Below, one piece after another: positions 8,371 through 46,856 of a stretch of DNA of 46,856 nt. The stretch lies in sequence record PZ379178.1, one strand, 5' to 3'. Under the pieces are notes generated by a model. The model saw only the letters and a list, made by a program, of their open reading frames with translations. It was not told where the DNA came from and ran no database searches. Source of the DNA: a phage. The translations under genes and the position numbers were made by a program. Each line of letters opens with the position of its first letter. Positions within the stretch are counted from its first letter, which is position 1.

Positions 8371-9954
8371 TTACCCCAGCAATCGTGGATTAATGTAAAT
8401 TTTATCACCAATCAGGCATGTGTAGTTTTTCTCATCAAGCATAGGAATCAAGTGGTCCTTAATGCGAGTCATAATTCCAGCCTGAGCTTCAAAAGGTTTA
8501 ACCTTGCGTGCAGCCTCATACAACGAGCGAACACCAACAACACCTTTACCATTCTTGCCTTGCTTAATCAGGATATCAACCAGCTTGTTCATCTCGGCAT
8601 TGTCACCAGCATGACCAGCAGCACTAGCGGATGATAAATAAGTCTTGCTTAGTTCGTTGAAAATCATAACCGCTTCCTGCATTGTATCCAGTTCAATCTC
8701 TCTTGACTTTTGAGGGCTGGATCCGGCTGGTGAGAACCAGTTACGAATTACGTGCAGAACAGAAGCGATGCGGATTGCTTGCTTATCAAACTTACCAAGA
8801 GCACCGCGCAACATTGTGTGAGAATACTTGCCACCATCACCAAGATGAGGCTCCATCTCTTGACGAGCGCGGTTAAGGTAACGCATTGATGACGCGCTTA
8901 CAGTAAGTTTCGCTTCAACTTCATTCATAATCTCATGAACAAGACGGAAATAGTCTGCTTTCAGGCCGCCATCAATAGCCTCATAGGTTGAATCACCATT
9001 CTCATCAACAAATACGCGCTCACCAAGAAATGACTTCTCACGCACCAGAAGGAAGCGCTCAGATACACCGATACCACGCGCACCGGCATTCATAATGGCG
9101 TTAATTGTTTCATCCTGCGCAATTACAGAGATACAACCCATAGCCACGAAACTCATGTTGTTTTCTGCATTCGCGCGCGCAATAGATACATTACCCGCAT
9201 CCCACGCCTTAAGCACAAGTTCGCTGTTCGTTTTCTTCGAGCCATCACCGTAAGTCATGCCTAACAGTGAGTTGACGCTAGTAGCCTCATCAGAGATTAC
9301 CGCAAAATTACCCTGGCGATTGTTGATTCGCGCAAGACCTTCCGGTGTAGTATCGGAGACAGGGAATACTATATCGCATAGCTTCTCGAGCTTCTCCTCT
9401 AAATCCTCCTTCTCCTCAAAAAGTGAAGCCATTTCAGAAGGTGATTTCTCCTGCTTCATCTCTTTAGCCAGAGCGGACAGTTTAGCCATAATCTTTTTTC
9501 GATCACGTTTACGTACTTCATTCAACCGCTCAGTCTCAGCAATCATCGGCGCAATTGATAGCGAGTTAATGGCTGATTTACCAGTTGAAGGCGGCTGACT
9601 TGTTACCACGTACAAAGATGTTGGCTGTTGGGTTCCATGATACTCGACAGTAAAACGCCCAAGCATTGCAGCAGAAACACAACCAAGAAAGTGCATGTAA
9701 GCTGACGACTCAGGGAACTGAACCGAGCGAGCGATATTAGCCGATAGCTTACCAACAACATCAATATCATTACCGAGTGAGATTACTGGATACTTATCAT
9801 TACCTGTATCAATCTCGACAGGTGCTTTCCAGAACGATTGAGACTGTCGATAGCCATTGGCATTAATAGCCACGCGAAGCGGTGGTAGGTTGTCATTGGC
9901 AGCGATTGCCATAACCTGCTCAACAGATAGTTTATCTTCGTTGAAATCAAACAT
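8371..9954 (-). CDS. P-loop NTPase-like protein of unknown function
   Basis: 527 aa; Walker A-like PPSTGKS and Walker B-like FAVISDEA; promoter box cassette immediately upstream (10011-10026, minus orientation). Confidence 0.5.
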   Translation of the reverse strand: MFDFNEDKLSVEQVMAIAANDNLPPLRVAINANGYRQSQSFWKAPVEIDTGNDKYPVISLGNDIDVVGKLSANIARSVQFPESSAYMHFLGCVSAAMLGRFTVEYHGTQQPTSLYVVTSQPPSTGKSAINSLSIAPMIAETERLNEVRKRDRKKIMAKLSALAKEMKQEKSPSEMASLFEEKEDLEEKLEKLCDIVFPVSDTTPEGLARINNRQGNFAVISDEATSVNSLLGMTYGDGSKKTNSELVLKAWDAGNVSIARANAENNMSFVAMGCISVIAQDETINAIMNAGARGIGVSERFLLVREKSFLGERVFVDENGDSTYEAIDGGLKADYFRLVHEIMNEVEAKLTVSASSMRYLNRARQEMEPHLGDGGKYSHTMLRGALGKFDKQAIRIASVLHVIRNWFSPAGSSPQKSREIELDTMQEAVMIFNELSKTYLSSASAAGHAGDNAEMNKLVDILIKQGKNGKGVVGVRSLYEAARKVKPFEAQAGIMTRIKDHLIPMLDEKNYTCLIGDKIYINPRLLG

Positions 9955-10955: not shown

Positions 10956-11158
10956 TATTCAATCACCTTAAAAGTTGCGATGCCGTGGATGATTACGTAA
11001 TCAAGGCATTTAAGCGCCTGGAACGTGTCGTGATGCTTGTGTGGACGTTCGCCGGTAACAAGGCACACGTCATCTTTAAACTCGGTAGCGTTGTATTCAG
11101 AACCCTTATTGAAGGCATCGTTAAAGTCTTTAATTACGTTCGTGCAAATTAGCTTCAT
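10955..11158 (-). CDS. Hypothetical protein (67 aa)
   Basis: ATG 11158 with AAGGA SD; longer ORF-track start 11212 overlaps upstream gene. Confidence 0.45.
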   Translation of the reverse strand: MKLICTNVIKDFNDAFNKGSEYNATEFKDDVCLVTGERPHKHHDTFQALKCLDYVIIHGIATFKVIE

Positions 11159-11169
11159 TATCTCATTCC

Positions 11170-11355
11170 TTACCAGGGTAAACATTCGTCGCAGCCGAGG
11201 CCATCGCAGCACAGATATTCATCATCTGACTGGAATTGCTTAGCAAGGTCGATATCGATGCGTCCGCGTAAAACCATATCAGTATAGTCACTGTTCAATC
11301 CAATCAGCGCACATTCCTGCTTTAATTGCTCAAATGCTTCGTCTTTAAGTTTCAT
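11170..11355 (-). CDS. Hypothetical Cys-rich small protein
   Basis: 61 aa with CCDGLGCDEC cluster; first gene after promoter box 11411-11426 at edge of long intergenic region. Confidence 0.45.
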   Translation of the reverse strand: MKLKDEAFEQLKQECALIGLNSDYTDMVLRGRIDIDLAKQFQSDDEYLCCDGLGCDECLPW

Positions 11356-11426
11356 ATCTCTCTCCTCGTTGTTGATGGATTCATTATGGTATCGTCGCCA
11401 GTTTTTGTCATTAGCAAAAAGTGCTA
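11356..11426 (-). promoter_or_regulatory. Box-hairpin-leader cassette (minus orientation)
   Basis: Reverse-complement box TAGCACTTTTTGCTAA (11411-11426), CATAAT, leader CATCAACAACGAGGAGAGAG; precedes ATG 11355. Confidence 0.5.
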
Positions 11427-11440
11427 TTCGTTGGATTTAT

Positions 11441-11548
11441 CTATTGTTGCAGCTATTGCAATGATTATCATGATTATTGCACATATAGCAATATTGCATG
11501 GAATGCAATGATGTTTTTGATTGTTGCAGAATTTGCAATGATTGATGT
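11441..11548. repeat. Iteron-like TTGCA repeat array
   Basis: ATTGTTGCAG-N-TTGCAATGATT at 11443-11467 and 11519-11543, plus inverted repeats ATTGC...GCAAT (11476-11492) and TTGCAT-GGA-ATGCAA (11494-11508). Confidence 0.6.
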
Positions 11549-11705
11549 GGGGTGAATGAATGGTGGATGAACTACCATACAAGTTGATTTTGATTCTTGC
11601 TGAGCCAATTTGGATATACACGTTATCGAAGTTATGGTGTGTATATGAGGTGCGCTTCCGAAGAATCATACACGCCTACCACGCTAGATTACGCAATGGT
11701 TACAT

Positions 11706-11762
11706 AATAATATCTATATATATCAACCTTTTACTATATTATTATTATTATTATATATATGT
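11706..11762. repeat. AT-rich (TTA)n element, copy A
   Basis: TAATATCTATATATATCAACCTTTTACT-ATATTATTATTATTATTATATATAT; near-identical copy at 39501-39556. Confidence 0.8.
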
Positions 11763-12027
11763 ATGTATATGGTGTAGATTGGTCGTATGGATGGGTCGAT
11801 AGTTTTTCTATGAAAACTACTAATTTTATCTATATAGATACATATGCATATCCCCGGCGAATCCGCGTAAAATCTTACACAGGGTAATTACACCAGCTAT
11901 AGCTGGGCTGAGAGGTCAAAAAGCGTAACCAATGCAGATATAAACACAACATAACACTTGATAACGCGTATATTCATGATACCATGGTTTCATCTTAACG
12001 AAGAGCAACCAATCAGGAGTAACGAAT

Positions 12028-12549
12028 ATGTCAGAACATAAAGAAGCAGTAAGTTTGGGTGAAATCATTCGATACATGGCGAGTCAGGCGCTCAAGTCAG
12101 AAGACAAAGTGTGCACAGTCCCTGTGACCATGATTGCTCGTCAATACTTCGGCATGAGTCGTGAGACGTTCGTATCGCTAAGTGGTGAGGAGGTTCTACC
12201 TGGTGGTGAATACCACATGCCAAAACTAAAAGCGTCATACGTTTCAAACACCGTAAGCCGAATGCCTGAGATTAAGGCGGCTGACGTGCGCTCAAGGTTC
12301 TCACTTAGTTTTACCGACTTTGAGGGCGAGAGTGAGACATACTGCGCATCACTTAGCCTGGTTCCTGGCGCTGTAAAATCCGGCTCAAGAAGCAAAGCAG
12401 AGCAAGAGAAGGAGGCGGCTACCATTGAAAGGTTCAAGGCTCGATTGTTGAAACTATCACCAAGCGTCGCTGGTCTTGAAGGTGATGAACTTAAGGGTGC
12501 AGTATCAATGATTAACGCATACCAAGAAATGATTAAGGAGACTAAATAG
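12028..12549 (+). CDS. Hypothetical protein
   Basis: 173-aa ORF, first plus-strand gene after divergent intergenic region A; AGGAG SD. Confidence 0.55.
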   Translation: MSEHKEAVSLGEIIRYMASQALKSEDKVCTVPVTMIARQYFGMSRETFVSLSGEEVLPGGEYHMPKLKASYVSNTVSRMPEIKAADVRSRFSLSFTDFEGESETYCASLSLVPGAVKSGSRSKAEQEKEAATIERFKARLLKLSPSVAGLEGDELKGAVSMINAYQEMIKETK

Positions 12550-12657
12550 TGGGTATGGTAGTCTACTACCATACCATCCGCGGTACAGTGAGGATGAGGA
12601 TGAGGTTGAGGTGGCTATGGATTTATATCGGAAAGCTAAATTACTACTGAATGGAAA

Positions 12658-12737
12658 TAGCACTTTTTGCCTAACGCAATAATGCCATGGATGGCATAAT
12701 TATCTCATCGAAACGAGAGGCACAAAGGAAAACGAAA
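12658..12737 (+). promoter_or_regulatory. Box-hairpin-leader cassette, variant box
   Basis: Box TAGCACTTTTTGCCTAA 12658-12674, hairpin GCCAT/ATGGC, CATAAT 12695-12700, leader CATCGAAACGAGAGG from 12706. Confidence 0.5.
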
Positions 12738-12926
12738 ATGGCTAAGCGCATCACTAAAGAACTTAAAGTCCTGAATAAAGAAAACGTAATCACCATCCTG
12801 ACAATGTTCGGATACAACGAAGAGTCAGCGATTGCAAAGGTTGAGGCTGGTTACGATGTTGCAGTACGTAGTATGCCGGAAGCAACCTCAAAAGGTATCG
12901 CCGACTTCCTGGCTACCTGCTACTGA
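12738..12926 (+). CDS. Hypothetical small protein
   Basis: ATG 80 nt downstream of promoter box 12658, after leader CATCGAAACGAGAGG. Confidence 0.45.
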   Translation: MAKRITKELKVLNKENVITILTMFGYNEESAIAKVEAGYDVAVRSMPEATSKGIADFLATCY

Positions 12927-12981
12927 GTTATCTTACAAGGCATCTCGCGGGGTGCCTCAATAAGACAACTGGAGAAACAGC

Positions 12982-13167
12982 ATGAAAACTAAAATGGTAC
13001 ATAAGAGCGAAGTTAAGATTGGCGATACTGTTATCCATCGTGGCTATCTTAGAACTGTAAATGCCAACACTTTTAGTAAGGATGAGTTTATGGGACTACT
13101 TCTTTGGGGCGACTCCTACCGGCTTGGGCAGGAGATGGTTGAAGTCATAATTGATGTTAAGTTTTGA
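12982..13167 (+). CDS. Hypothetical small protein
   Basis: 61-aa ORF; stop immediately precedes promoter box 13169. Confidence 0.45.
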   Translation: MKTKMVHKSEVKIGDTVIHRGYLRTVNANTFSKDEFMGLLLWGDSYRLGQEMVEVIIDVKF

Positions 13168-16074: not shown

Positions 16075-16150
16075 GTTCTGCTGGCGTAACAGGATAACGC
16101 AAAGACCTCCTAAGTCTTAGTTACTGGTTCGAGTCCAGTGCGGAACACCA
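16075..16150 (+). tRNA. tRNA-Arg (anticodon CCU)
   Basis: Hand-folded cloverleaf: 7-bp acceptor stem (one G-U), U8, 4-bp D stem, 5-bp anticodon stem with loop CTCCTAA (U33, CCT, A37), T arm ACTGG-TTCGAGT-CCAGT, discriminator A and encoded CCA. Confidence 0.8.
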
Positions 16151-23063: not shown

Positions 23064-23086
23064 AGCCTCCTTCGGGAGGTTTTTTG
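23064..23086 (+). terminator. Rho-independent terminator
   Basis: CCTCC-TTCG-GGAGG followed by T6. Confidence 0.65.
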
Positions 23087-36800: not shown

Positions 36801-37300
36801 ACACTTACGTTACTGCCGATTCAATTGGTGCTCAGTACGGGATTAAACTTGGCCTCAAATACAATGGCGTTGAGTACAGTTCTGGCATGAGTATGGAGCT
36901 AACTGGTTCTGATGGCAATGTTCGTAGTCAGGTCATCTTTGATGCTAACAGGTTAGCAATCAGTAACGGCATTAGCTCTGGATCCGGTCAGTGGTCATTG
37001 CCTTTCGTAGTTGAAGGTAATCAGGTATTCATTCAAAGCGCAGTGATTCAGGATGGTTCAATCACTAACGCGAAGATTGGTAACCGGATTCAATCTAATA
37101 ACTACGTGGCTGGTTCTCAGGGTTGGGCCATTGATAAGTCAGGCAGTGCGGAACTTAACAATGCAACTGTAAGGGGTAGTCTGTACGCAAGTAACGGCAA
37201 CTTTGCGTTTAACGGAACCAACAACACTGTTCAGATTAACAATAATGGAATTACAGTTAATTTACCGAATGGTGGAAGGGTTGTAGTTGGAGTGTGGTAA
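33875..37300 (+). CDS. Host specificity / central tail fiber protein (gpJ-like)
   Basis: 1141 aa, last and largest gene of tail-tip cluster after I-like gene. Confidence 0.75.
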   Translation: MAQMVKTNAELCDMAEEIKIYGSKGGQPKQHQPVEQPDNLISVNKVKVLLAVSDGEVDSSFSLKDLYLADVPVQNQNGTYNYEGVTAEFRPGTQSQDYIAGLEGANSEVQVNREIKNSTPYIIAVNNTQLSAIRVKLFWPRLINQESNGDLNGTTCEYAIDLSVDGATYTEYTRGVANGKTTSGYDRSIRVNLPAEFSSALVRVRKITADSESSTLVNDMQITTYQEVIDAKFRYPLTALVYVEFSSDLFPNGIPTISIKKKWKLIRVPTNYNPETRTYSGTWNGTFKMAYSNNPAWVLYDLVTNQRYGLDQRELGITIDKWGLYEAAQFCDQMVPDGKGGVEPRYLCDVVIQQKVEAYQVIRDICSIFRGLTFYDGEQIGIVVDKPRQPSYVFTNDNVVDGLFNRTFGSDKSLYTVANVQFDDVENSYQQDVEPVFELEATRRFGYNPVDLTAIGCTRRSEANRRGRWLLKTNIRSETISFTTGLEGMIPMIGEVIAVNDQAWSSNYTLNLSGRIESVSGLQVFVPFKIDATAGDRILINKPDGMPEYRTIASVSEDGMTLQLNTAFSFTPQPDTVFAIDKENLALQQYVVTGIQKADSDGDDAFGYTITAVEYDPNKYDEIDYGVNIQDRPTSIVEPDTLLAPENVQVSSYSKVVQGLSVETMVITWDKVQYAKTYTVQWRKENGNWINVPRTASTEVDIEGIYAGIYQVRVRAVSDTENVSAWSDIVSVSLTGKIGTPSSPTVITASDDEIFGIRVKWGFPENSADTSYTELQQVADNGDGTYTPENASLLTLVPYPSYEYWHTTLPAGKVIWYRARLIDKIGNVSPWTDFVRGMASDDVSSIIGDIKVDIENSDGFKYLQQNAIESNGAIQAQAESIIENALANDGDVRRMTKENGKRKAEFVQAVNLIADEERARVEALTQLKAQIDDEIVASLTRIDTALAEETQARTTADTALSARLGDNEAALNEKLDTYVTADSIGAQYGIKLGLKYNGVEYSSGMSMELTGSDGNVRSQVIFDANRLAISNGISSGSGQWSLPFVVEGNQVFIQSAVIQDGSITNAKIGNRIQSNNYVAGSQGWAIDKSGSAELNNATVRGSLYASNGNFAFNGTNNTVQINNNGITVNLPNGGRVVVGVW

Positions 37301-37306
37301 ATGATT

Positions 37307-37330
37307 AGGCCCCTTTCGGGGCCTTTTCTT
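37307..37330. terminator. Bidirectional terminator between J-like gene and minus-strand operon
   Basis: AGGCCCC-TTTC-GGGGCCT followed by TTTTCTTTT; convergent genes end at 37300 and 37331. Confidence 0.65.
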
Positions 37331-38302
37331 TTAGTAGAAGTTTGGTATGAATGGTAGAGCCATTGATATGTTTGTGTCGAATGGGAATTGGGCTCCCGTC
37401 TGCGTTGAGTAGTTCCCTATCACAGTGCCTGGAACTGCCCTTACGGCACCACCAGACATGCATATTCCCTTGTACCTTAAGTTGTTATACCCTCCAGTAA
37501 CTCTTGTTGTAGCGCCGCACCTGAGCAGTGGGAAGAACCCTCCATTTATTGACTGGAAACCATTGGTTATTTGTATAAAGCCACCAAGCACGAACGGTCG
37601 CCTGACGCTTGAAAAAACAATCTGTCCAGAACTATTAGACATTGTGAGTCCTGGGCCAGCTACTGGAGGGTCATTCCTGAATATCACTAACTGTACGTAA
37701 GTACTTGCTGCAACGTCATCTATGCCGCTGTAGTTTATGTTGCGGCACCAAATTGTATTACCGTCGCTCTCCAGAGAAACGTTTGGGTTATCCCATTTAC
37801 CAAATGGAATCCCACTGACTGGTAGTGAGGCGGCGCCGTTAACCTGTATTCCACCAACCCATGCCGCAGACATTAACCGCGAATTGCTTGAAATTGCCAA
37901 AAAGTCAGTTGAGTTCTCAACCAGTATTCCTGGGCTTGATGAAGACGAGGCTGGGAGTATTTCAAAGCAATTTCCAGCAAAGTCAATTATACGACCTCTT
38001 GCGCCATTGAAGTCACTAAGCGTTATCCTGCCAGTTCCGTCATTTACCTTCTGGAACCCGTTCATATAATAAACTTCAGGTACAACATCATAAGCGTCAA
38101 CGTGCACAGCCTTTGTTGGAAGGCAGAATGCTGTTGAGCCTGTGGACATGGTTAAACCAAAATCCCATGATGATGCTGGCGTCGAAAGTCCATTGGTATT
38201 TATTGAGCCAGTCACAGCGGGCGCTCTTAATCCTGCCGTTATTTCCATAGGTGGCCTTCCGTCGTTGAGGTCTATCAATATACCCTGTGGCATTATTTCC
38301 AC
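37331..38302 (-). CDS. Hypothetical Gly/Ser/Asn-rich protein, cotranscribed with lipoprotein gene
   Basis: 323-aa ORF overlapping 3-prime end of 38293..38538 by 10 nt; convergent with J-like gene at bidirectional terminator. Confidence 0.5.
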
Positions 38303-38538: not shown

Positions 38539-38622
38539 TTTAGTATTCCCTAGAATGTGTGTTTCGTTTCAATGGAGTAATGATATCTCATCATTGAGAT
38601 TTGTCTTTAGCTATTCGTGCTA
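38539..38622 (-). promoter_or_regulatory. Box-hairpin-leader cassette (minus orientation)
   Basis: Reverse-complement box TAGCACGAATAGCTAAA (38606-38622), hairpin, leader CATTGAAACGAAACACAC; precedes lipoprotein gene ATG 38538. Confidence 0.5.
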
Positions 38623-39291
38623 TTTACTTTCCAGTAACAGCTTAATGTCGATACCAAGTTTATTCTCGATCAATCCGGTCAGTGCGTCCGTCTTTTCTTT
38701 AAGAGCAAAGCATTGCGTTTCATACTTAAACCTTGCTTCCATTTCATCGGAACGTGATGCCCAAGACTGCCGAGCCTCGCAAGCAAGCATATCTAGTTTT
38801 TCATCTGTATTCTTATCCATGAGAAGGATTTCATTGATTCGCTGCTCAGCAACGATTCGCTGACTAAGGTGAGCGTTCTGCGCATTAGCCACACCAAGCA
38901 TCATGCGTGCCTCTTTTAGCTCATCAATACTAACCATCTTGCTGATTACTTCCTGTTGAGTGTTAATGGTTTGCTGCATCTCTTTTAGCTTGTTTAGAAC
39001 CGAACGACGAACAGACTTTGACTCACGCATTCCGACAAGAAGCATTTGCTCCATATTAAGCACTGGTGAGTTGATCGACTTTCTATAACCACCTCTTCCC
39101 TCACTTTTGATTACGAAACTTTCGTAGTCAAACTCAAACCCCTCAATCTCATCCTCTATCCTCTCAACAAAGTCATTGTGTCGAACATCAGATTCACCAG
39201 CAACTAACCTCGCTGGGTTGATAACTTCATTCAAAAACTGATAACTGTTCATTTTCACATCTTCATTTAGTAGAGCTAGGTTCATTTTCAT
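38620..39291 (-). CDS. Rha-like phage regulatory protein (putative)
   Basis: N-terminal SYQFLNEVINPARLVAGESDVRHNDFVERI resembles Rha-family N-domain, coiled-coil C-terminus; start 39291 after AGAGAG SD. Confidence 0.4.
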   Translation of the reverse strand: MKMNLALLNEDVKMNSYQFLNEVINPARLVAGESDVRHNDFVERIEDEIEGFEFDYESFVIKSEGRGGYRKSINSPVLNMEQMLLVGMRESKSVRRSVLNKLKEMQQTINTQQEVISKMVSIDELKEARMMLGVANAQNAHLSQRIVAEQRINEILLMDKNTDEKLDMLACEARQSWASRSDEMEARFKYETQCFALKEKTDALTGLIENKLGIDIKLLLESK

Positions 39292-39380
39292 CTCTCTTTT
39301 TTTATTCTGGCTAAGCACCATTGCCGCCATGCGCACAAATATACCCAAATACTGCATCTTGTCTTTAGCAAATCGTGCTA
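39292..39380 (-). promoter_or_regulatory. Box cassette (minus orientation)
   Basis: Reverse-complement box TAGCACGATTTGCTAAA (39364-39380), TATATT, AAAAAAAGAGAG SD; precedes Rha-like gene. Confidence 0.45.
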
Positions 39381-39500
39381 TTTATCGCAAATTTACCCAT
39401 AAATCATGGTTACGCGTAATCGATGTAACTCGATGTATACCATATGCATCCGCGGGAAATCGTATACGCCTAGTTACGCCAGTTTACGCCATAGTTACAC

Positions 39501-39556
39501 TATAATATCTATATATATCAACCTTTTACTCTTATTATTATTATTATATATATTAC
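39501..39556. repeat. AT-rich (TTA)n element, copy B
   Basis: TAATATCTATATATATCAACCTTTTACT-CTTATTATTATTATTATATATAT; 28-nt core identical to 11708-11735. Confidence 0.8.
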
Positions 39557-39871
39557 TGTGTATATCATGTAACTACTGTTCTGGAGTGTTCCGGTTATAA
39601 TTTTTATATCATGTGATTTTATACAGTATTGCGCAGCACCTATACCTATGCACCCTCCGCTAAAATCGGTATACACGGTATACTCACTATTTACATTGAG
39701 CTATAGCTTGGCTTAAGTGGCGAAAAACGTAACTCATGCCAATGTCTACACGTAGTTACAAAATTATACGCGTATACTTGATTAATTAATAGGTGATACC
39801 AATTGGACTATGCGTTGTGCGTACGGCATCATTAACTCATCGAAAGCACGCAACAATAGAGAGATAGAGAA

Positions 39872-40066
39872 ATGCCATACTTCATTATTAAAGAGAAAAA
39901 CAACGCACTGTTCGGCGATTGCTACTTTGGTGGCCCCGCTGGATATACAGTTCACAAATCTGAAGCGGACCGATTCGATAGCAAGGAAGAGGCAAAATCT
40001 ATTCTGACAGGATATTTCACTGAGGAAGATTTGAAAGCTGTTAAGATTGTTAAAATTAAGGATTGA
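39872..40066 (+). CDS. Hypothetical small protein
   Basis: 64-aa ORF, first plus-strand gene after divergent region B, preceded by leader CATCGAAAGCACG...AGAGAG. Confidence 0.45.
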   Translation: MPYFIIKEKNNALFGDCYFGGPAGYTVHKSEADRFDSKEEAKSILTGYFTEEDLKAVKIVKIKD

Positions 40067-41802: not shown

Positions 41803-42219
<417 letters not shown>

Positions 42220-42229
42220 TAAAAGATAA

Positions 42230-42252
42230 AGCCCCTTTCGGGGCTTTTTTTA
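42230..42252. terminator. Bidirectional terminator between SSB and tail fiber genes
   Basis: AGCCCC-TTTC-GGGGCT followed by T7; convergent gene ends 42219 and 42250. Confidence 0.65.
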
Positions 42253-44778
42253 TTGAAGCGCCATCCTTGAGTTGGTAAATATTAAAGCGTCTCTTTGGTT
42301 ATCGAACTCTACAACGAAGTAATCAGCAAGACTTAATACCATACCAGGTAGCCCATTAAGGTTGATATGCAGGTTTGCAGTGCCAGAGACTGAAGCCTGA
42401 GCAACTCCAAATGTGTGAACCCACTTACCGCCCTCAGTGAATACCTTCCCTAAAGATGCACTACCAAAAATACTGATAACACCATCAGCACCACCTTGAA
42501 TTCTGTTTGCAGAGATACCCCAAACATACCATTTGCCAGCGGTTATATTAAAGACACCATTTATCAATTCGTACTGAGCCGCACCACCCAATTCGTAGTA
42601 TCCAGATGATTGCGAGTGTATACCCCTTGTATCAGAACCTTCACTTGCCGACCCTGTTCCACCAAAGTTGTTCCCACCAGTACCAAAAGGCTTCCTGACT
42701 AAAACAGTTCCGGAATCAGGGTTAAAAACTCGACCTTTAGTAACATATCCTCTAACAGATAAGTCAGATGTACCCGTTATCTTGGCTGTCTGTGATACCA
42801 GTGACTCAACTATAACGTTTGATGTTGAAGAGCCATTCAGGTATGCATCCTTAGCAAAAATAATACTGTTTGAATCAAGAGAGAAACTTTGATGCCCGTC
42901 AGCGTTATCAAACCTGCAACCGTAAGTAATAAGGTTTGAGTTCGACAACTCAATGTTATTAATGTAGGAATGCTCAGCAAAGAAAACAGACGTATCGATG
43001 AGCTTCAAAACCCTTGGGAGTTCAGCTCCCTCACCTACGTTAATTGCCCCACCAGTTGCTATCGCTTCAAACCATACGTTAGACAATCCGCAAGGTGATG
43101 TTGGGCAATCTCCAGGTTTATTCTTTAACCTTATACCGCCGCCAGCAGAGGCCTCCATTATTGAATCCCTAATCCACCACCCACCAATTCCTCCAGCGCC
43201 AGGGTTCGTTGCGCTACTTGTGCTTGTCGCATCTAGCATTACTGAATATTGAGAGATTGTATCTGAGTGGTATCCGTATAAAGTGTCCGCTCCTATATGC
43301 ATTTCGTCATGAGCTTTTGCTCGATACCCGTAATTCGCATTTCTAATACTTACGTTTCTGTAGGTATTTCCAATGTTGCCAGCATTTTTCCTTATACCAA
43401 CATCCAGGTCATTGAAGTAAAGCCTATCCAATACAACCCTTCCAGCATAAGGGCCATCCGGGAATTGAAAGCCGTTATTACCTTGTATTGCAGTACCTGT
43501 AAACTGCAAATCCGATAAATGCTTTTGCCTCCAGTGCGGAACCGATAGCGTTGAGGTGAGTCCGGTTTCAAAAGGTTTAACACTTATTACGGTATTATAT
43601 CCAGAGCCTGATATGTTCCTGCCAGCAAAGGAGTAGTTATTACTCTCATAAGTTCCCGGGCTTATAACTACCGACCCGCCATCGCCAGCGGCTTCTATTG
43701 CTGAAGATATTGAGCCGCTATAGCTTGATGTGCTTTTTGAATCTGTATTTAAAATTGATGATAATTCGCTCTTTGAGTAAACATCAAGGTTGGTTCTTGC
43801 TTCTGCTTTATCTGCAACATCAGATAAATTCAATGATTTTTGAAAAGTCTCATTTTTTGAGTAAACATCAAGCAAGCCTCTTACTCGCTGGGCGCTAGCG
43901 CCGCCAACCTTACTTCCTGATGCGACATAAAGAGCCTCTCTTGAATAGTAAGTTTTGTTTGGTGCCGTGCCAGTCTGAGTTAAATCAATCAACCTGTACG
44001 TATTATCGGATCCGGTTGATGCTGACACTTGTATGTTCTTAACACCAGTAATCCCCCTTGATGACTTAACCTCAATCGCACAAAGCGTGCTATCGGAGTA
44101 GGTTATATTTATCACCTCTGGAGCGTTGATCATTGCTGACTTTTGGCATAGGTATCTAGCTCCTGATTTGAAATCAAACGTATTCCAGTCAAGTTCTGTC
44201 AACTGAGGTGTAAACGAGCCACCGATACCCATATTGGCAAGAGTTACCATTGTGCCAGCATCACCAGCACTATTAATTGCCTCAATAGTAGCATCTCTCG
44301 CTGATGTGGTTGTATCCCTTGCGCTAACGGCAGTAGCGGCGCTCTCTGCGGCAGCAATCTGGCTAGCTAAAGACTCGGCAGCCCCTGTTACTGATTGGTT
44401 TGCTAATTGCTCGAAGCGAGGCCAATCGAAATTATCTTGCCCGATAAATTGCAGCAAACTTTCAATAGAAGTCTCCTTTGACTGATAGTAACGCAGAGTC
44501 TCAGCAACATCCTGAGCTAAACCCTGAACGGTAATGCCATCGTGAGCAAGAATCGCGTAACCAGTTCCGGCAGGAACAGTTTCAGAATTAGGGTTGTAAA
44601 CATTAATCTGAGTGTCGCTGATGATTTCAGAGATGGTATAAATTTTAAGTGGACTGGTTTTAAAAATAATGGTTGCACCTACACGAATAAGTGTAAGTGG
44701 TGCTTTCCATGTTGTCCGGACGCCAGTAACCTCGCCATTTGCGGCTAGCGACGCTGTTCCTAAGTCATAAATTGCCAT
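42250..44778 (-). CDS. Tail fiber / tailspike-like protein
   Basis: About 842 aa; central region with repetitive Asn/Gly/Ser-rich beta-helix-like segments; start ATG 44778 preferred over GTG 44808. Confidence 0.6.
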   Translation of the reverse strand: MAIYDLGTASLAANGEVTGVRTTWKAPLTLIRVGATIIFKTSPLKIYTISEIISDTQINVYNPNSETVPAGTGYAILAHDGITVQGLAQDVAETLRYYQSKETSIESLLQFIGQDNFDWPRFEQLANQSVTGAAESLASQIAAAESAATAVSARDTTTSARDATIEAINSAGDAGTMVTLANMGIGGSFTPQLTELDWNTFDFKSGARYLCQKSAMINAPEVINITYSDSTLCAIEVKSSRGITGVKNIQVSASTGSDNTYRLIDLTQTGTAPNKTYYSREALYVASGSKVGGASAQRVRGLLDVYSKNETFQKSLNLSDVADKAEARTNLDVYSKSELSSILNTDSKSTSSYSGSISSAIEAAGDGGSVVISPGTYESNNYSFAGRNISGSGYNTVISVKPFETGLTSTLSVPHWRQKHLSDLQFTGTAIQGNNGFQFPDGPYAGRVVLDRLYFNDLDVGIRKNAGNIGNTYRNVSIRNANYGYRAKAHDEMHIGADTLYGYHSDTISQYSVMLDATSTSSATNPGAGGIGGWWIRDSIMEASAGGGIRLKNKPGDCPTSPCGLSNVWFEAIATGGAINVGEGAELPRVLKLIDTSVFFAEHSYINNIELSNSNLITYGCRFDNADGHQSFSLDSNSIIFAKDAYLNGSSTSNVIVESLVSQTAKITGTSDLSVRGYVTKGRVFNPDSGTVLVRKPFGTGGNNFGGTGSASEGSDTRGIHSQSSGYYELGGAAQYELINGVFNITAGKWYVWGISANRIQGGADGVISIFGSASLGKVFTEGGKWVHTFGVAQASVSGTANLHINLNGLPGMVLSLADYFVVEFDNQRDALIFTNSRMALQ

Positions 44779-44843: not shown

Positions 44844-44866
44844 TAAAAAAACCTCCCGAAGGAGGT
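44844..44866 (-). terminator. Rho-independent terminator after primase gene (minus strand)
   Basis: CCTCC-CGAA-GGAGG with A7 on plus strand (T-run on minus). Confidence 0.55.
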
Positions 44867-45792
44867 TAGTCTAGTAATTCGTTTGCCTTGTATATTCTCT
44901 TTCTTATGCCTGACTTGAAAAAATTACCATCATTTGGAATTACAATATCAAGATTGCGATCGTCAGCAACGGCAAGTAAATCAAAAGAGTTGCGAGTACA
45001 AGCGACGCGTAACTTGTAGTTCCTAAGCGCATAAGCAACCATTTCCATGTTGTAGCTGGAGTGGCAAACAAGCACGCAGCGATTTCCAGTAGCAAGATGA
45101 ACGCGAACACCATCAATCCAATTATCGACCAGATAAGCGTACTCATCATCTTTAAAGGTGCCAATAATAGAAACAGACTGGCGAGTATAATCTTTTGCAG
45201 CATAGCTAACATCTCCATCTTCATTGATAAACATTACATTGCACATATCATCTGATATGCCGTCACTATAAGCCATAAAGCACGGTACTGCGTGTATTAG
45301 TTCGCCTGATTTCGTCCTGCCAACATCAAAACCAAATTCGCTATAGATACCCTCGTATGTACTTAGCGGAGTTAATTCTACTCTTTCCGTCCTTTCCATT
45401 ATCTCTAAGCATCTTTCGTGATCAATCTTGGCGCCCATTTTGTATGGTGATGTACGAGATGCTCTTTTGTTTGCTTTTGATATAACCTCTACTGGAACGA
45501 GATTCAGCCAATCACCAAGCGTATCTATTGTTTCGCTATAACTCATTCCCGAGCATTTCATAACCCAGCCAACACCAGAATCATTTCCGCACTGGTTGCA
45601 TATTGCTGCGCCATTTCCCTTTTCCTGACCTAACTCATCAGTGAAGCGAAACCTATCCCTGCCAAAGCAGTAAGGGCACGGACCATGTTTCTTGCTGAGA
45701 TTCTCCTTTGTCCATCCAAGGTTCGATGAGTAGAATTCGCCCCACATTCCCTTCATTTTTGCTATCACTTCGCTCTTATCATGGTGACTCAT
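44866..45792 (-). CDS. DNA primase-like protein (zinc-binding domain)
   Basis: N-terminal CPYC-x17-CNQC zinc-ribbon; start 45792 with GGAGG SD; promoter box upstream (45844-45860). Confidence 0.5.
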   Translation of the reverse strand: MSHHDKSEVIAKMKGMWGEFYSSNLGWTKENLSKKHGPCPYCFGRDRFRFTDELGQEKGNGAAICNQCGNDSGVGWVMKCSGMSYSETIDTLGDWLNLVPVEVISKANKRASRTSPYKMGAKIDHERCLEIMERTERVELTPLSTYEGIYSEFGFDVGRTKSGELIHAVPCFMAYSDGISDDMCNVMFINEDGDVSYAAKDYTRQSVSIIGTFKDDEYAYLVDNWIDGVRVHLATGNRCVLVCHSSYNMEMVAYALRNYKLRVACTRNSFDLLAVADDRNLDIVIPNDGNFFKSGIRKRIYKANELLD

Positions 45793-45860
45793 AGTTACCT
45801 CCATAAACAATAAAGGCACTATACACAATGTATAGCGCCACTGTTTATCAATTCGTGCTA
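45793..45860 (-). promoter_or_regulatory. Box-hairpin-leader cassette (minus orientation)
   Basis: Reverse-complement box TAGCACGAATTGATAAA (45844-45860), palindrome CTATACATTGTGTATAG, GGAGG SD; precedes primase ATG 45792. Confidence 0.5.
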
Positions 45861-46340
45861 TTTCCCTTGCTCTTTATCTTTTCGTGCTGCTTCGTTAGCG
45901 GCCTTAATCTTGCGCCATGAGCGACACTCTGGTTTAGTTGCTAGCTCAGCCTCAGTAACAACACGCAGCATATGACGCTTCTTGCAACGTAGAGTTAGCG
46001 GTTTCCCGTTACCGTCGAATTGCAGATCTGGTCGGCAGAATGTAGCGCGAAAACCTTCTCCATTTCGCTTATAGTAGTTGTGCGACAACTGAGCGCCACG
46101 CGCAGAAATCATCCCGCGATCAAACCATTGCTCTACAGTCTGGTGAGATACATTTAACTGCTTGGCGATATTGGCCTTCGTGCCGTAGAAATCAAGAACC
46201 ATCTCCAGACGAGCTCGTAGCCCAGCCTTTACTTCATCTTTCAATACGTAGTAGCCTGACGGTCGTTTGCGCTGTTTCTTGTCTTGCGTGCGGATGGTTC
46301 CGTTATTGCCGTTGATAGTTCGCTTGTCAATTTCACACAT
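45858..46340 (-). CDS. HTH-type DNA-binding protein (putative regulator)
   Basis: 160 aa, basic; TKANIAKQLNVSHQTVEQW resembles helix-turn-helix. Confidence 0.45.
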   Translation of the reverse strand: MCEIDKRTINGNNGTIRTQDKKQRKRPSGYYVLKDEVKAGLRARLEMVLDFYGTKANIAKQLNVSHQTVEQWFDRGMISARGAQLSHNYYKRNGEGFRATFCRPDLQFDGNGKPLTLRCKKRHMLRVVTEAELATKPECRSWRKIKAANEAARKDKEQGK

Positions 46341-46436: not shown

Positions 46437-46856
46437 ATGCTTCCAGTAGAGCGCTTAGTGGCGAACTTTGATAAAGAGAAAATTAAACAGATTCAGAAAG
46501 ATTACCAGTTTGGAGACATAACGCCTTACGAATTCCAGTGCGTGACATTTGACGCAATCGGTAAGGCTATTGGCAAGTACGAAGCGCCATTCATCGCAGA
46601 CCTGTCGGTGTCTGCTGGTAAGACAATTATACTCGCCATGATTGGGAAACGAATGGAACAGCTTGGCCTTCCTTACATGGTCCTATCTCGCCAGTCAGAG
46701 ATTATCAGCCAGAACGCAGAGGAACTTCGTAATTTCGGCATCCGTAATAGCGTCTATTGCGCTGGCCTTAACGTTAAATCAGTTTACTACCCAACCATAG
46801 TGGCTAGCGAGGGTACGGCTGCCAACGGCTTATTTAAGGGGCTTGGTGACTATGTT
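46437..46856 (+). CDS. Helicase N-fragment, 5-prime part (runs off window end, continues at nt 1)
   Basis: ATG 46437 is 73 nt downstream of promoter box 46364; Walker A SVSAGKT; 140 complete codons to window end, in frame with nt 1 ORF. Confidence 0.6.
   Translation, partial: MLPVERLVANFDKEKIKQIQKDYQFGDITPYEFQCVTFDAIGKAIGKYEAPFIADLSVSAGKTIILAMIGKRMEQLGLPYMVLSRQSEIISQNAEELRNFGIRNSVYCAGLNVKSVYYPTIVASEGTAANGLFKGLGDYV

Follow-up and report, generated by a model that had tools for sequence, protein, structure and literature searches.

A duplicated AT-rich intergenic module as a candidate replication origin of T1-like coliphages

What is the function of an AT-rich element that a phage genome carries twice, about 28 kb apart, in the non-coding DNA between divergently oriented genes? 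The question was raised by sequence record PZ379178.1. All 46,856 bp of the record (the window) make up one complete genome, circularly permuted, of a T1-type, Rtp-like coliphage (Drexlerviridae, Braunvirinae), to which the Escherichia phages ES and AN_ECEAS are most closely related, with 98% identity across 11000-13000. An earlier reading, made from the letters of the sequence and without database searches (the sequence-only reading), had noticed a 28-nt core followed by TTA and TA runs at two positions, and had listed twin origins, host factor binding sites and packaging or recombination sites as possible shared functions. The repeat was found to be larger than that reading had recognised, the real unit being a structured module of ~360 bp. 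Based on its layout, the two modules (A and B, in intergenic regions A and B) are the best candidate so far for the origin(s) of T1-like phages, with a role in early promoter control being nearly as likely.

The module and its two copies

The 28-mer TAATATCTATATATATCAACCTTTTACT is present as an exact match at 11708-11735 and at 39503-39530, both on the + strand, and no third site was found in the genome at up to three mismatches. Matches were obtained in 0 of 100 dinucleotide shuffles, with an expected number by chance of 0. In both copies the 28-mer is followed by (TTA)5, at 11739-11753 and 39532-39546, and then by (TA)3. The double occurrence reported by the sequence-only reading was therefore confirmed, and the self-comparison that it had recommended ranked the same pair at the top: by self-BLAST, 11664-11776 against 39458-39571 is the strongest internal repeat of the genome (82.8% over 116 nt, E=7e-25). 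The placement of the copies was also as described, the long divergent gaps 11355/12028 and ~39285/39872 holding one copy each; the third divergent junction (46340/46438) measures only ~100 bp. The cores had further been described as embedded in otherwise different sequence, which was incorrect. Sensitive blastn revealed homology between 11617-11972 and 39411-39776 (65.6% over 378 columns, E=7e-32), that is, over the ~360 bp of the full module.

The components of the modules are listed in Table 1. In module B, the left-edge palindrome and direct repeats are followed by CCGCGG..AAAT..GTATACGCC, the three phased TACGCC repeats and, immediately left of the core, the heptamer GTTACAT (39494-39500). 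Its inverted partner, ATGTAAC, is found right of the core at 39567-39573, where the (TTA)5(TA)3 tract is followed by TTACTGTGTATATC, this ATGTAAC and then more GTATAC/ATACACG repeats. Module A keeps the same order of elements with weaker matches, its ACGC repeats standing at -67/-58/-48 from the TTA run. Within each 28-mer, the TATCAACCTTTTA site (starting at 11721 and 39516) matches the IHF core consensus perfectly and is preceded by TATATATA.

Two genome-wide measures set these segments apart. Nearest-neighbour duplex stability reaches its two global minima in the cores at every window size tried (30-120 bp; z=4.6-5.5), the lowest value in the genome being that of 11701-11780 (z=5.5) and the second-lowest that of 39492-39571 (z=5.1). 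Sites of the type GTTACA/TTACGC/GTATAC number 13 within 39401-39800, compared to a genome mean of 0.52 per 400 bp. The heptamer GTTACAT/ATGTAAC occurs three times inside the modules and nowhere else in the genome, and the palindrome AGCTATAGCT has two genomic copies, one per module; in a genome-wide search, neither was seen at any other promoter region, including that of the gene for the Cro-like regulator described below. The modules combine phased short repeats with an adjacent AT tract of low stability, two of the features of iteron-type origins, the repeats being unusually short.

Table 1. Coordinates of the modules, their components and the signals predicted beside them
Feature	Position	Strand	Remark
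Core A: 28-mer, (TTA)5, (TA)3	11708-11762	+	element of the sequence-only reading
Core B: 28-mer, (TTA)5, (TA)3	39503-39556	+	
Module A, full extent of homology	11617-11972	+	sensitive blastn and pairwise alignment
Module B, full extent of homology	39411-39776	+	sensitive blastn; 39405-39630 very highly conserved in relatives
Module A, left edge: near-palindrome ATATACACGTTAT	11614-11626	+	
Module A, three ACGC repeats, then GTTACA	11671-11704	+	repeats at 11672, 11681, 11691, ~10-bp phase; GTTACA 11699-11704
Module A, IHF core consensus TATCAACCTTTTA	11721-11733	+	consensus WATCARNNNNTTR; A/T tract upstream
Module A, palindrome AGCTATAGCT	11895-11904	+	
Module A, right edge: near-palindrome ATAACGCGTATAT	11961-11973	+	overlaps -35 hexamer and spacer of the proximal rightward promoter
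Module B, left edge: palindrome TTACGCGTAA, direct repeats CGATGTAAC and CGATGTATAC	39410-39440	+	palindrome 39410-39419; repeats 39421-39429 and 39431-39440
Module B, three TACGCC repeats, then GTTACA	39465-39499	+	repeats at 39465, 39475, 39485, exact 10-bp phase; GTTACA 39494-39499
Module B, IHF core consensus TATCAACCTTTTA	39516-39528	+	
Core B, right flank: TGTGTATAT and ATGTAAC	39557-39573	+	TGTGTATAT is a DnaA-R2-like box, one mismatch, - strand
Module B, palindrome AGCTATAGCT	39699-39708	+	
Module B, right edge: palindrome TATACGCGTATA	39765-39776	+	
Region A, leftward promoter: 21-nt repeat ATAGCACTTTTTGCTAAT directly upstream of ATGACA-17-CATAAT	11383-11430	-	predicted
Region A, ATTGCAATGATT-type repeat array	11436-11560	+	candidate pac; outside the duplicated module, region A only
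Region A, proximal rightward promoter: TTGATA-16-TACCAT with TG	11958-11985	+	predicted; serves DUF7174 gene 12028-12549
Region B, leftward promoter: 21-nt repeat ATAGCACGATTTGCTAAA and AAGACA-16-TATATT	39338-39384	-	predicted
Region B, proximal rightward promoter: TTGGAC-18-CATCAT, then CATCGAAAG box	39803-39832	+	predicted; serves ORF 39872-40066 and exonuclease VIII

Conservation among T1-like phages

As a check on its own claim, the sequence-only reading had suggested that the core be sought in related phages. Two copies were found in every phage of the Braunvirinae, Rogunavirinae and Nouzillyvirus that was examined. These included Rtp, IME542 and CY1 (Christensenvirus), 26174I (Veterinaerplatzvirus), FP and AugustePiccard (Braunvirinae), GaoY1-9D (Nouzillyvirus) and AHP24 (Rogunavirinae); for EC3a (Guelphvirus), copy B alone was examined. 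Approximately 116 GenBank phage records match copy B, and a 25-mer taken from the left arm of module B, in the version of the relatives, is exact in nine isolates of several subfamilies. The relatives carry GGTTACACGTAACC in place of the left-edge palindrome TTACGCGTAA of the window. An exact 27-mer scan of IMG/VR returned three contigs with a single copy each, which is no argument against two copies since the other copy differs slightly.

For copy B, the mean pairwise identity in nine phages was 98.4% over 39501-39580 and 91.8% over 39405-39630, while the adjacent exonuclease VIII gene of the window was only 73% identical to that of Rtp and 59-61% identical to that of AHP24. With both copies kept in the relatives and copy B far more conserved than the coding DNA beside it, the earlier argument from conservation at two strand-switch points to a shared function holds. 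The core of copy A was less uniform, with a mean identity of 73% and a (TTA)n run of 4 to 7 or more units. Of the 19 copies examined, 16 could be parsed by script for the spacing of the ACGC repeats; in most of these the repeats stand at approximately -66/-56/-46 from the TTA run, in two subfamilies and also in copies with different sequence between the repeats. Nine B copies (Braunvirinae and Nouzillyvirus) all have the IHF consensus unchanged, and it has one mismatch in copy A of Rtp and of AHP24.

Gene conversion or concerted evolution was considered as the cause of the identical 28-mers and was ruled out: the A-B identity within a genome (0.762) is about the same as that between genomes (0.755), hence the resemblance is not maintained by gene conversion. 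The identity of the 28-mer is instead a retained ancestral state. The duplication is an old one, older than the split between Braunvirinae and Rogunavirinae, and both copies are under selection, copy B far more strongly. Overall, the modules bear the mark of strong purifying selection.

No sequence homologue of the module was found in T1. At both equivalent positions, T1 has AT-rich tracts flanked by TTACGCC and GTGTAACAG/GTGTTACAA repeats. In region A of T1 (395-430), three tandem copies of CGATTAACA were observed downstream of the AT tract and GATTACGATTACGC upstream; these are unlike the Rtp-type repeats and occupy the same positions. The module had no match among 5,426 genomes of E. coli and 72,556 plasmids, and its derivation from the host, from a plasmid or from a satellite was rejected.

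Other interpretations of the conserved segments were also discarded. The open reading frames (ORFs) that cross the cores (11560-11802 and 39406-39600, with IISIYINLLL in common) had been dismissed as spurious in the sequence-only reading, correctly so: the frames of A and B differ after NLLL, copy B of the window has a 1-nt indel upstream of the core relative to its relatives, the ATG of the core-crossing ORF is not conserved, and the core is invariant at all positions, which excludes a coding function. A structured RNA or single-stranded DNA element was likewise rejected, the folds of both DNA strands and of a putative leader RNA being no better than those of shuffles (z=-0.26, +1.29 and +1.79), and an Rfam scan of the window matched a tRNA only. 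A conserved terminator at 39581-39594 was dismissed on the loss of its hairpin stem in relatives.

Candidate functions of the modules

The two modules may, with some reserve, be interpreted as twin replication origins or unwinding elements. In the proposed mechanism, a sequence-specific protein would bind at the three phased TACGC(C) repeats and at the GTTACAT heptamers placed in inverted orientation on either side of the core. Candidate binders are the DUF3987 MCM-like helicase with its presumed C-terminal winged helix (encoded at 8371-9954) or the Cro-like helix-turn-helix (HTH) protein (encoded at 45858-46340). Host IHF may bend the DNA at TATCAACCTTTTA in those copies where the site is present. 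At the (TTA)n(TA)n tract, where the duplex is less stable than anywhere else in the genome, the strands would then melt, helped by negative supercoiling from the divergent flanking promoters, and the phage helicase and primase would be loaded for the host polymerase to copy the DNA.

The origin interpretation was suggested by the iteron-plus-AT layout, by the coincidence of the cores with the two global stability minima and by the confinement of the motifs to the modules. It is further favoured by the strong purifying selection in the absence of gene conversion, by the AT tracts at the analogous positions of T1, and by the tolerance of the (TTA)n run to changes in length, which would be acceptable in an unwinding element and not in a fixed promoter spacer. 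Promoter candidates within the core are not common to A and B, and separate proximal promoters are present, as detailed below. The phage encodes its own primase and DUF3987 helicase, yet the origin of T1-like phages has not been located; according to two recent genome papers, it was sought explicitly and not found.

The DUF3987 protein (8371-9954, - strand) is the homologue of T1 gp09 and is labelled either 'DNA helicase' or 'hypothetical' in phage records. In the literature, the family comprises superfamily 6 (SF6), MCM-like replicative helicases with a winged helix-turn-helix (wHTH) at the C terminus, and 5'-3' helicase activity has been demonstrated for one homologue. The protein is probably the replicative helicase or initiator of the T1-like phages.

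A precedent is provided by SPP1, a siphovirus that likewise packages by the pac/headful mode and has two similarly built origins ~13 kb apart, each consisting of direct repeats together with an AT-rich DNA unwinding element (DUE); its second origin, oriR, has been proposed to arrest forks and thereby lead to concatemer synthesis. As in SPP1 oriL and oriR, two copies lie kilobases apart with direct repeats beside an AT-rich unwinding element, one of them in a long intergenic region where transcription signals are found as well. There is, however, no sequence similarity. In SPP1 a dedicated initiator, gp38, binds the sites and oriL is located inside gene 38, whereas for the T1-like modules, both of them intergenic, only candidate initiators can be named. 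A more specific version of the origin interpretation, in which the MCM-like (SF6, DUF3987) helicase would itself recognise and melt both modules via its winged helix, the second copy then being a back-up origin or a place where forks are arrested and concatemer synthesis is set off, as proposed for SPP1 oriR, was judged rather unlikely.

The ori and crr of satellite P4 form another pair of separated cis elements with the same short repeats, recognised in this case by a primase-helicase whose C terminus carries a winged helix. The P4 repeats (TGTTCACC) bear no relation in sequence to those of the modules, the elements are 4.5 kb apart compared to ~28 kb here, and P4 alpha is one fused protein, primase and helicase being encoded by separate genes in the window. 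In the T1 record, the primase of the T1 type is compared in the annotation to the alpha protein of the P4 family. Iterons next to AT-rich DNA are also known from lambda ori, pSC101 and R6K gamma, and E. coli oriC has a comparable DUE-R1-IHF region. In common with these, the modules have phased short repeats beside the least stable AT tract and an IHF consensus between repeats and tract; next to the tract they also have T-rich repeats of the TTATT type and a box resembling R2 (ATATACACA). In contrast, iterons are 18-22 bp long and the module repeats only ~6-7 nt with a 10-bp period, and the T1-like modules have no DnaA-box cluster and do not lie in or beside an initiator gene.

A number of observations count against an origin. 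Dependence on DnaA was not supported, as there is no DnaA-box cluster in the modules, which have single one-mismatch ATATACACA boxes at 39557 and 11638; the sole exact box of the genome lies elsewhere. The turning points of GC skew follow gene orientation and give no independent support for an origin. The IHF consensus has been lost from copy A of AugustePiccard and CY1 and from copy B of AHP24, and its genome-wide frequency is that expected by chance (5 observed, 5.2 expected). The host factor binding sites of the sequence-only reading are partly supported, by the perfect consensus in both copies of the window. Nucleotide-level invariance over ~80-225 bp in copy B exceeds the need of a simple unwinding element, and the invariant block 39501-39580 corresponds to approximately -60 to +20 of a predicted rightward promoter, TTTACT-18-TATATT. 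The modules are placed exactly where the control regions of early promoters would be expected, their edge palindromes resemble HTH operators, one of them overlapping the -35 of the region-A promoter, and two GenBank records annotate promoters in the core. Of the functions listed in the sequence-only reading, twin origins remains the best anatomical fit and is put forward as a proposal.

Several of these points would be expected of a regulatory cassette for early promoters, duplicated upstream of the two early rightward operons, and this alternative, which was not on the list of the sequence-only reading, ranks only slightly behind the origin. The AT-rich core could be an UP-element, an IHF-bent upstream region or itself a strong early promoter, and a phage regulator such as the Cro-like HTH protein could use the palindromes and heptamers as operators to switch both early regions jointly. 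Each module does lie between one leftward and one rightward promoter, the latter at its right end and predicted, as a sigma-70 promoter, to serve the flanking genes; in module A, the right-edge palindrome overlaps the -35 and spacer of this promoter. On the minus strand, every copy has a perfect TATAAT where (TA)n meets (TAA)n, and the promoters annotated at this location stem from phiSITE prediction and from the AHP24 authors. However, promoter-like matches are no commoner than in shuffled sequence. The rightward candidate TTTACT-18-TATATT, invariant in nine phages, is restricted to copy B and has no equivalent on the + strand of copy A. On the minus strand, copy A has TCTACA-17-TATAAT, but the spacer is 19 nt in copy B and in AHP24, and the -35 hexamers of these leftward candidates differ between copies A and B. 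The (TTA)n run varies by up to 9 bp or more, the spacing of core and leftward promoter differs by 25 bp within the B copies and by ~200 bp when A is compared with B, and the module motifs are absent from all other promoter regions, even the regulator's own.

The proximal rightward promoters of regions A and B match promoters P01 and P51 of phage TLS in position, two of the three sigma-70 promoters reported in all for that genome; in the relatives, the region-B promoter reads TTGGAC-N16-TATATA. As these predicted promoters serve the flanking genes, no promoter in the core is needed by them. Lytic coliphages such as T5 possess strong AT-rich early promoters, and the modules share with these a very high A+T content over a block of ~80 bp at the start of early operons for host RNA polymerase. 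They differ in that consensus hexamers and spacing are not kept between the copies and in having separate proximal promoters. The origin and early-promoter interpretations are not mutually exclusive, since transcription can activate an origin.

The two remaining functions that had been suggested are recombination and packaging. A recombination-related site, either a linker for exchange between co-infecting phages or an entry point for RecE/Erf-driven recombination-dependent replication, would fit the position of copy B directly upstream of the exonuclease VIII/Erf/SSB genes and the mosaic junction at the left edge of module B, from which (39407 on) ES and AN_ECEAS match the window; the near-identity of copy B in otherwise diverged phages could also mean frequent exchange. 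General recombination, however, requires no specific site, no signal of A/B gene conversion was seen, and the phased repeats, inverted heptamers, palindromes and retained, diverged copy A would be left unexplained, making this an improbable function. An accessory packaging site, at which terminase and IHF would assemble in conjunction with pac, as with the IHF sites of lambda cosB or P1 pac, was considered the least probable of all. Copy A does lie ~100-200 bp from the ATTGCAATGATT array and from the equivalent of the T1 left end, and it contains the IHF consensus. Copy B, however, is ~28 kb away with no pac-like array beside it and is nevertheless the better conserved; the terminase genes are distant, and a second packaging start is not indicated in any record examined.

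The packaging function is better assigned to the neighbouring array itself, which is the part of that earlier suggestion that survives. The array consists of ATTGCAATGATT, ATGCAATGAT and TTGCA units, and its stretch 11487-11535 is nearly invariant in nine phages. Both the start of the Rtp GenBank record and T1 position 1, the start of the 2.8-kb terminal repeat, fall within this array or its T1 equivalent and not within a module, and no such array exists at copy B. In published work, the pac site of T1 is assigned to this untranslated region, and the region-A array is a likely pac site.

Neighbouring features and significance

To the left of module A are small genes and the DUF3987 helicase gene, in the leftward operon of region A, and to its right the DUF7174 gene. 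Module B is followed by a 64-aa ORF and exonuclease VIII, after which Erf and SSB come in Rtp and T1. To its left is an anti-repressor-like gene (phrog_8235; within 38620-39410) that many relatives do not have; it is absent from Rtp, ES and AN_ECEAS and has its own 21-nt-repeat promoter. Since ES and AN_ECEAS match region B only from ~39407 (query position 808), that is, from the left edge of module B, this edge appears to be a mosaic junction or the site of a moron insertion. The primase of the phage is encoded at 44866-45828.

The 21-nt repeat ATAGCACnnnTTGnTAAA lies directly upstream of the leftward -35 hexamers in both regions (11410-11427 and 39364-39381, minus strand). This repeat of T1-like phages (aaATAGCACnnnTTGnTAAAA) is known, and its function is listed as an open question in the TLS paper (PMC11447400). 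It resembles the modules in being a conserved non-coding repeat of the Drexlerviridae, flanking both of them on the left, and differs in sequence, in copy number and in abutting the -35; the two-copy element does not belong to that family. In the window, 19 copies were counted compared to 0.5 expected by chance, at 903, 3133, 5473, 6560, 10010(-), 10790(-), 11410(-), 12657, 13168, 13851, 15196, 18898, 27322, 38606(-), 39364(-), 41038, 44802, 45844(-) and 46353. They are co-oriented with the genes, the exception being 44802, on the + strand between minus-strand genes. In the copies inspected, the end of the repeat abuts the -35 hexamer, often followed by a CATAAT-like -10 and, close to where the transcript is predicted to start, by a conserved CATCGAAA box. 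A location at approximately -38 to -58 would suit an UP-element or a site for a class I activator.

Some further features were recorded elsewhere in the window. A SNF2/DEAD-type helicase gene (T1 gp22 homologue) starts at 46438, runs past the window end and continues at 1-2715. It appears interrupted: ORF 219-1073 overlaps ORF 1006-2715, and the second of these has a weak Intein_splicing match at its start (E=3.9e-5, below the Pfam cutoff); an intein or homing-element insertion may be present. A 15-nt periodic CAG/CAA repeat encoding poly-Gln (42136-42194) lies at the 3' end of ORF 41803-42219, which is in the position of the SSB gene of Rtp and T1. A single tRNA-Arg (anticodon CCT) is located at 16075-16150, among small early genes upstream of the terminase region, as has been reported for other T1-like phages. 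Near-identical GC-rich hairpins with T runs (GCCCCTTTCGGGGC; CCTCCTTCGGGAGG) were found at 37295-37332, 42217-42254, 23066-23085 and 44846-44865, at module boundaries and in some cases inverted, and are probably shared or bidirectional intrinsic terminators.

The two-copy module is not described in the accessible literature or annotation, the kind of element, an intergenic iteron/AT-rich control region, being familiar; nor did the accessible literature yield a description of an IHF requirement of T1-like phages or of T1 origin mapping. T1 belongs to the classical T phages, and the phages related to it are common as contaminants in laboratories and fermentations and are candidates for phage therapy. 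A discrete, deeply conserved, non-coding module with origin-like anatomy, present in two copies, bears on a long-standing gap in the biology of T1, and the ~80-bp invariant core of copy B offers a useful diagnostic and engineering landmark for the Braunvirinae. Should the module prove to be an early-promoter cassette instead, it would define the cis-logic of the early switch in T1-like phages. Should the DUF3987 protein act on it as outlined, it would represent a bacterial-virus origin run by an MCM-type initiator-helicase.

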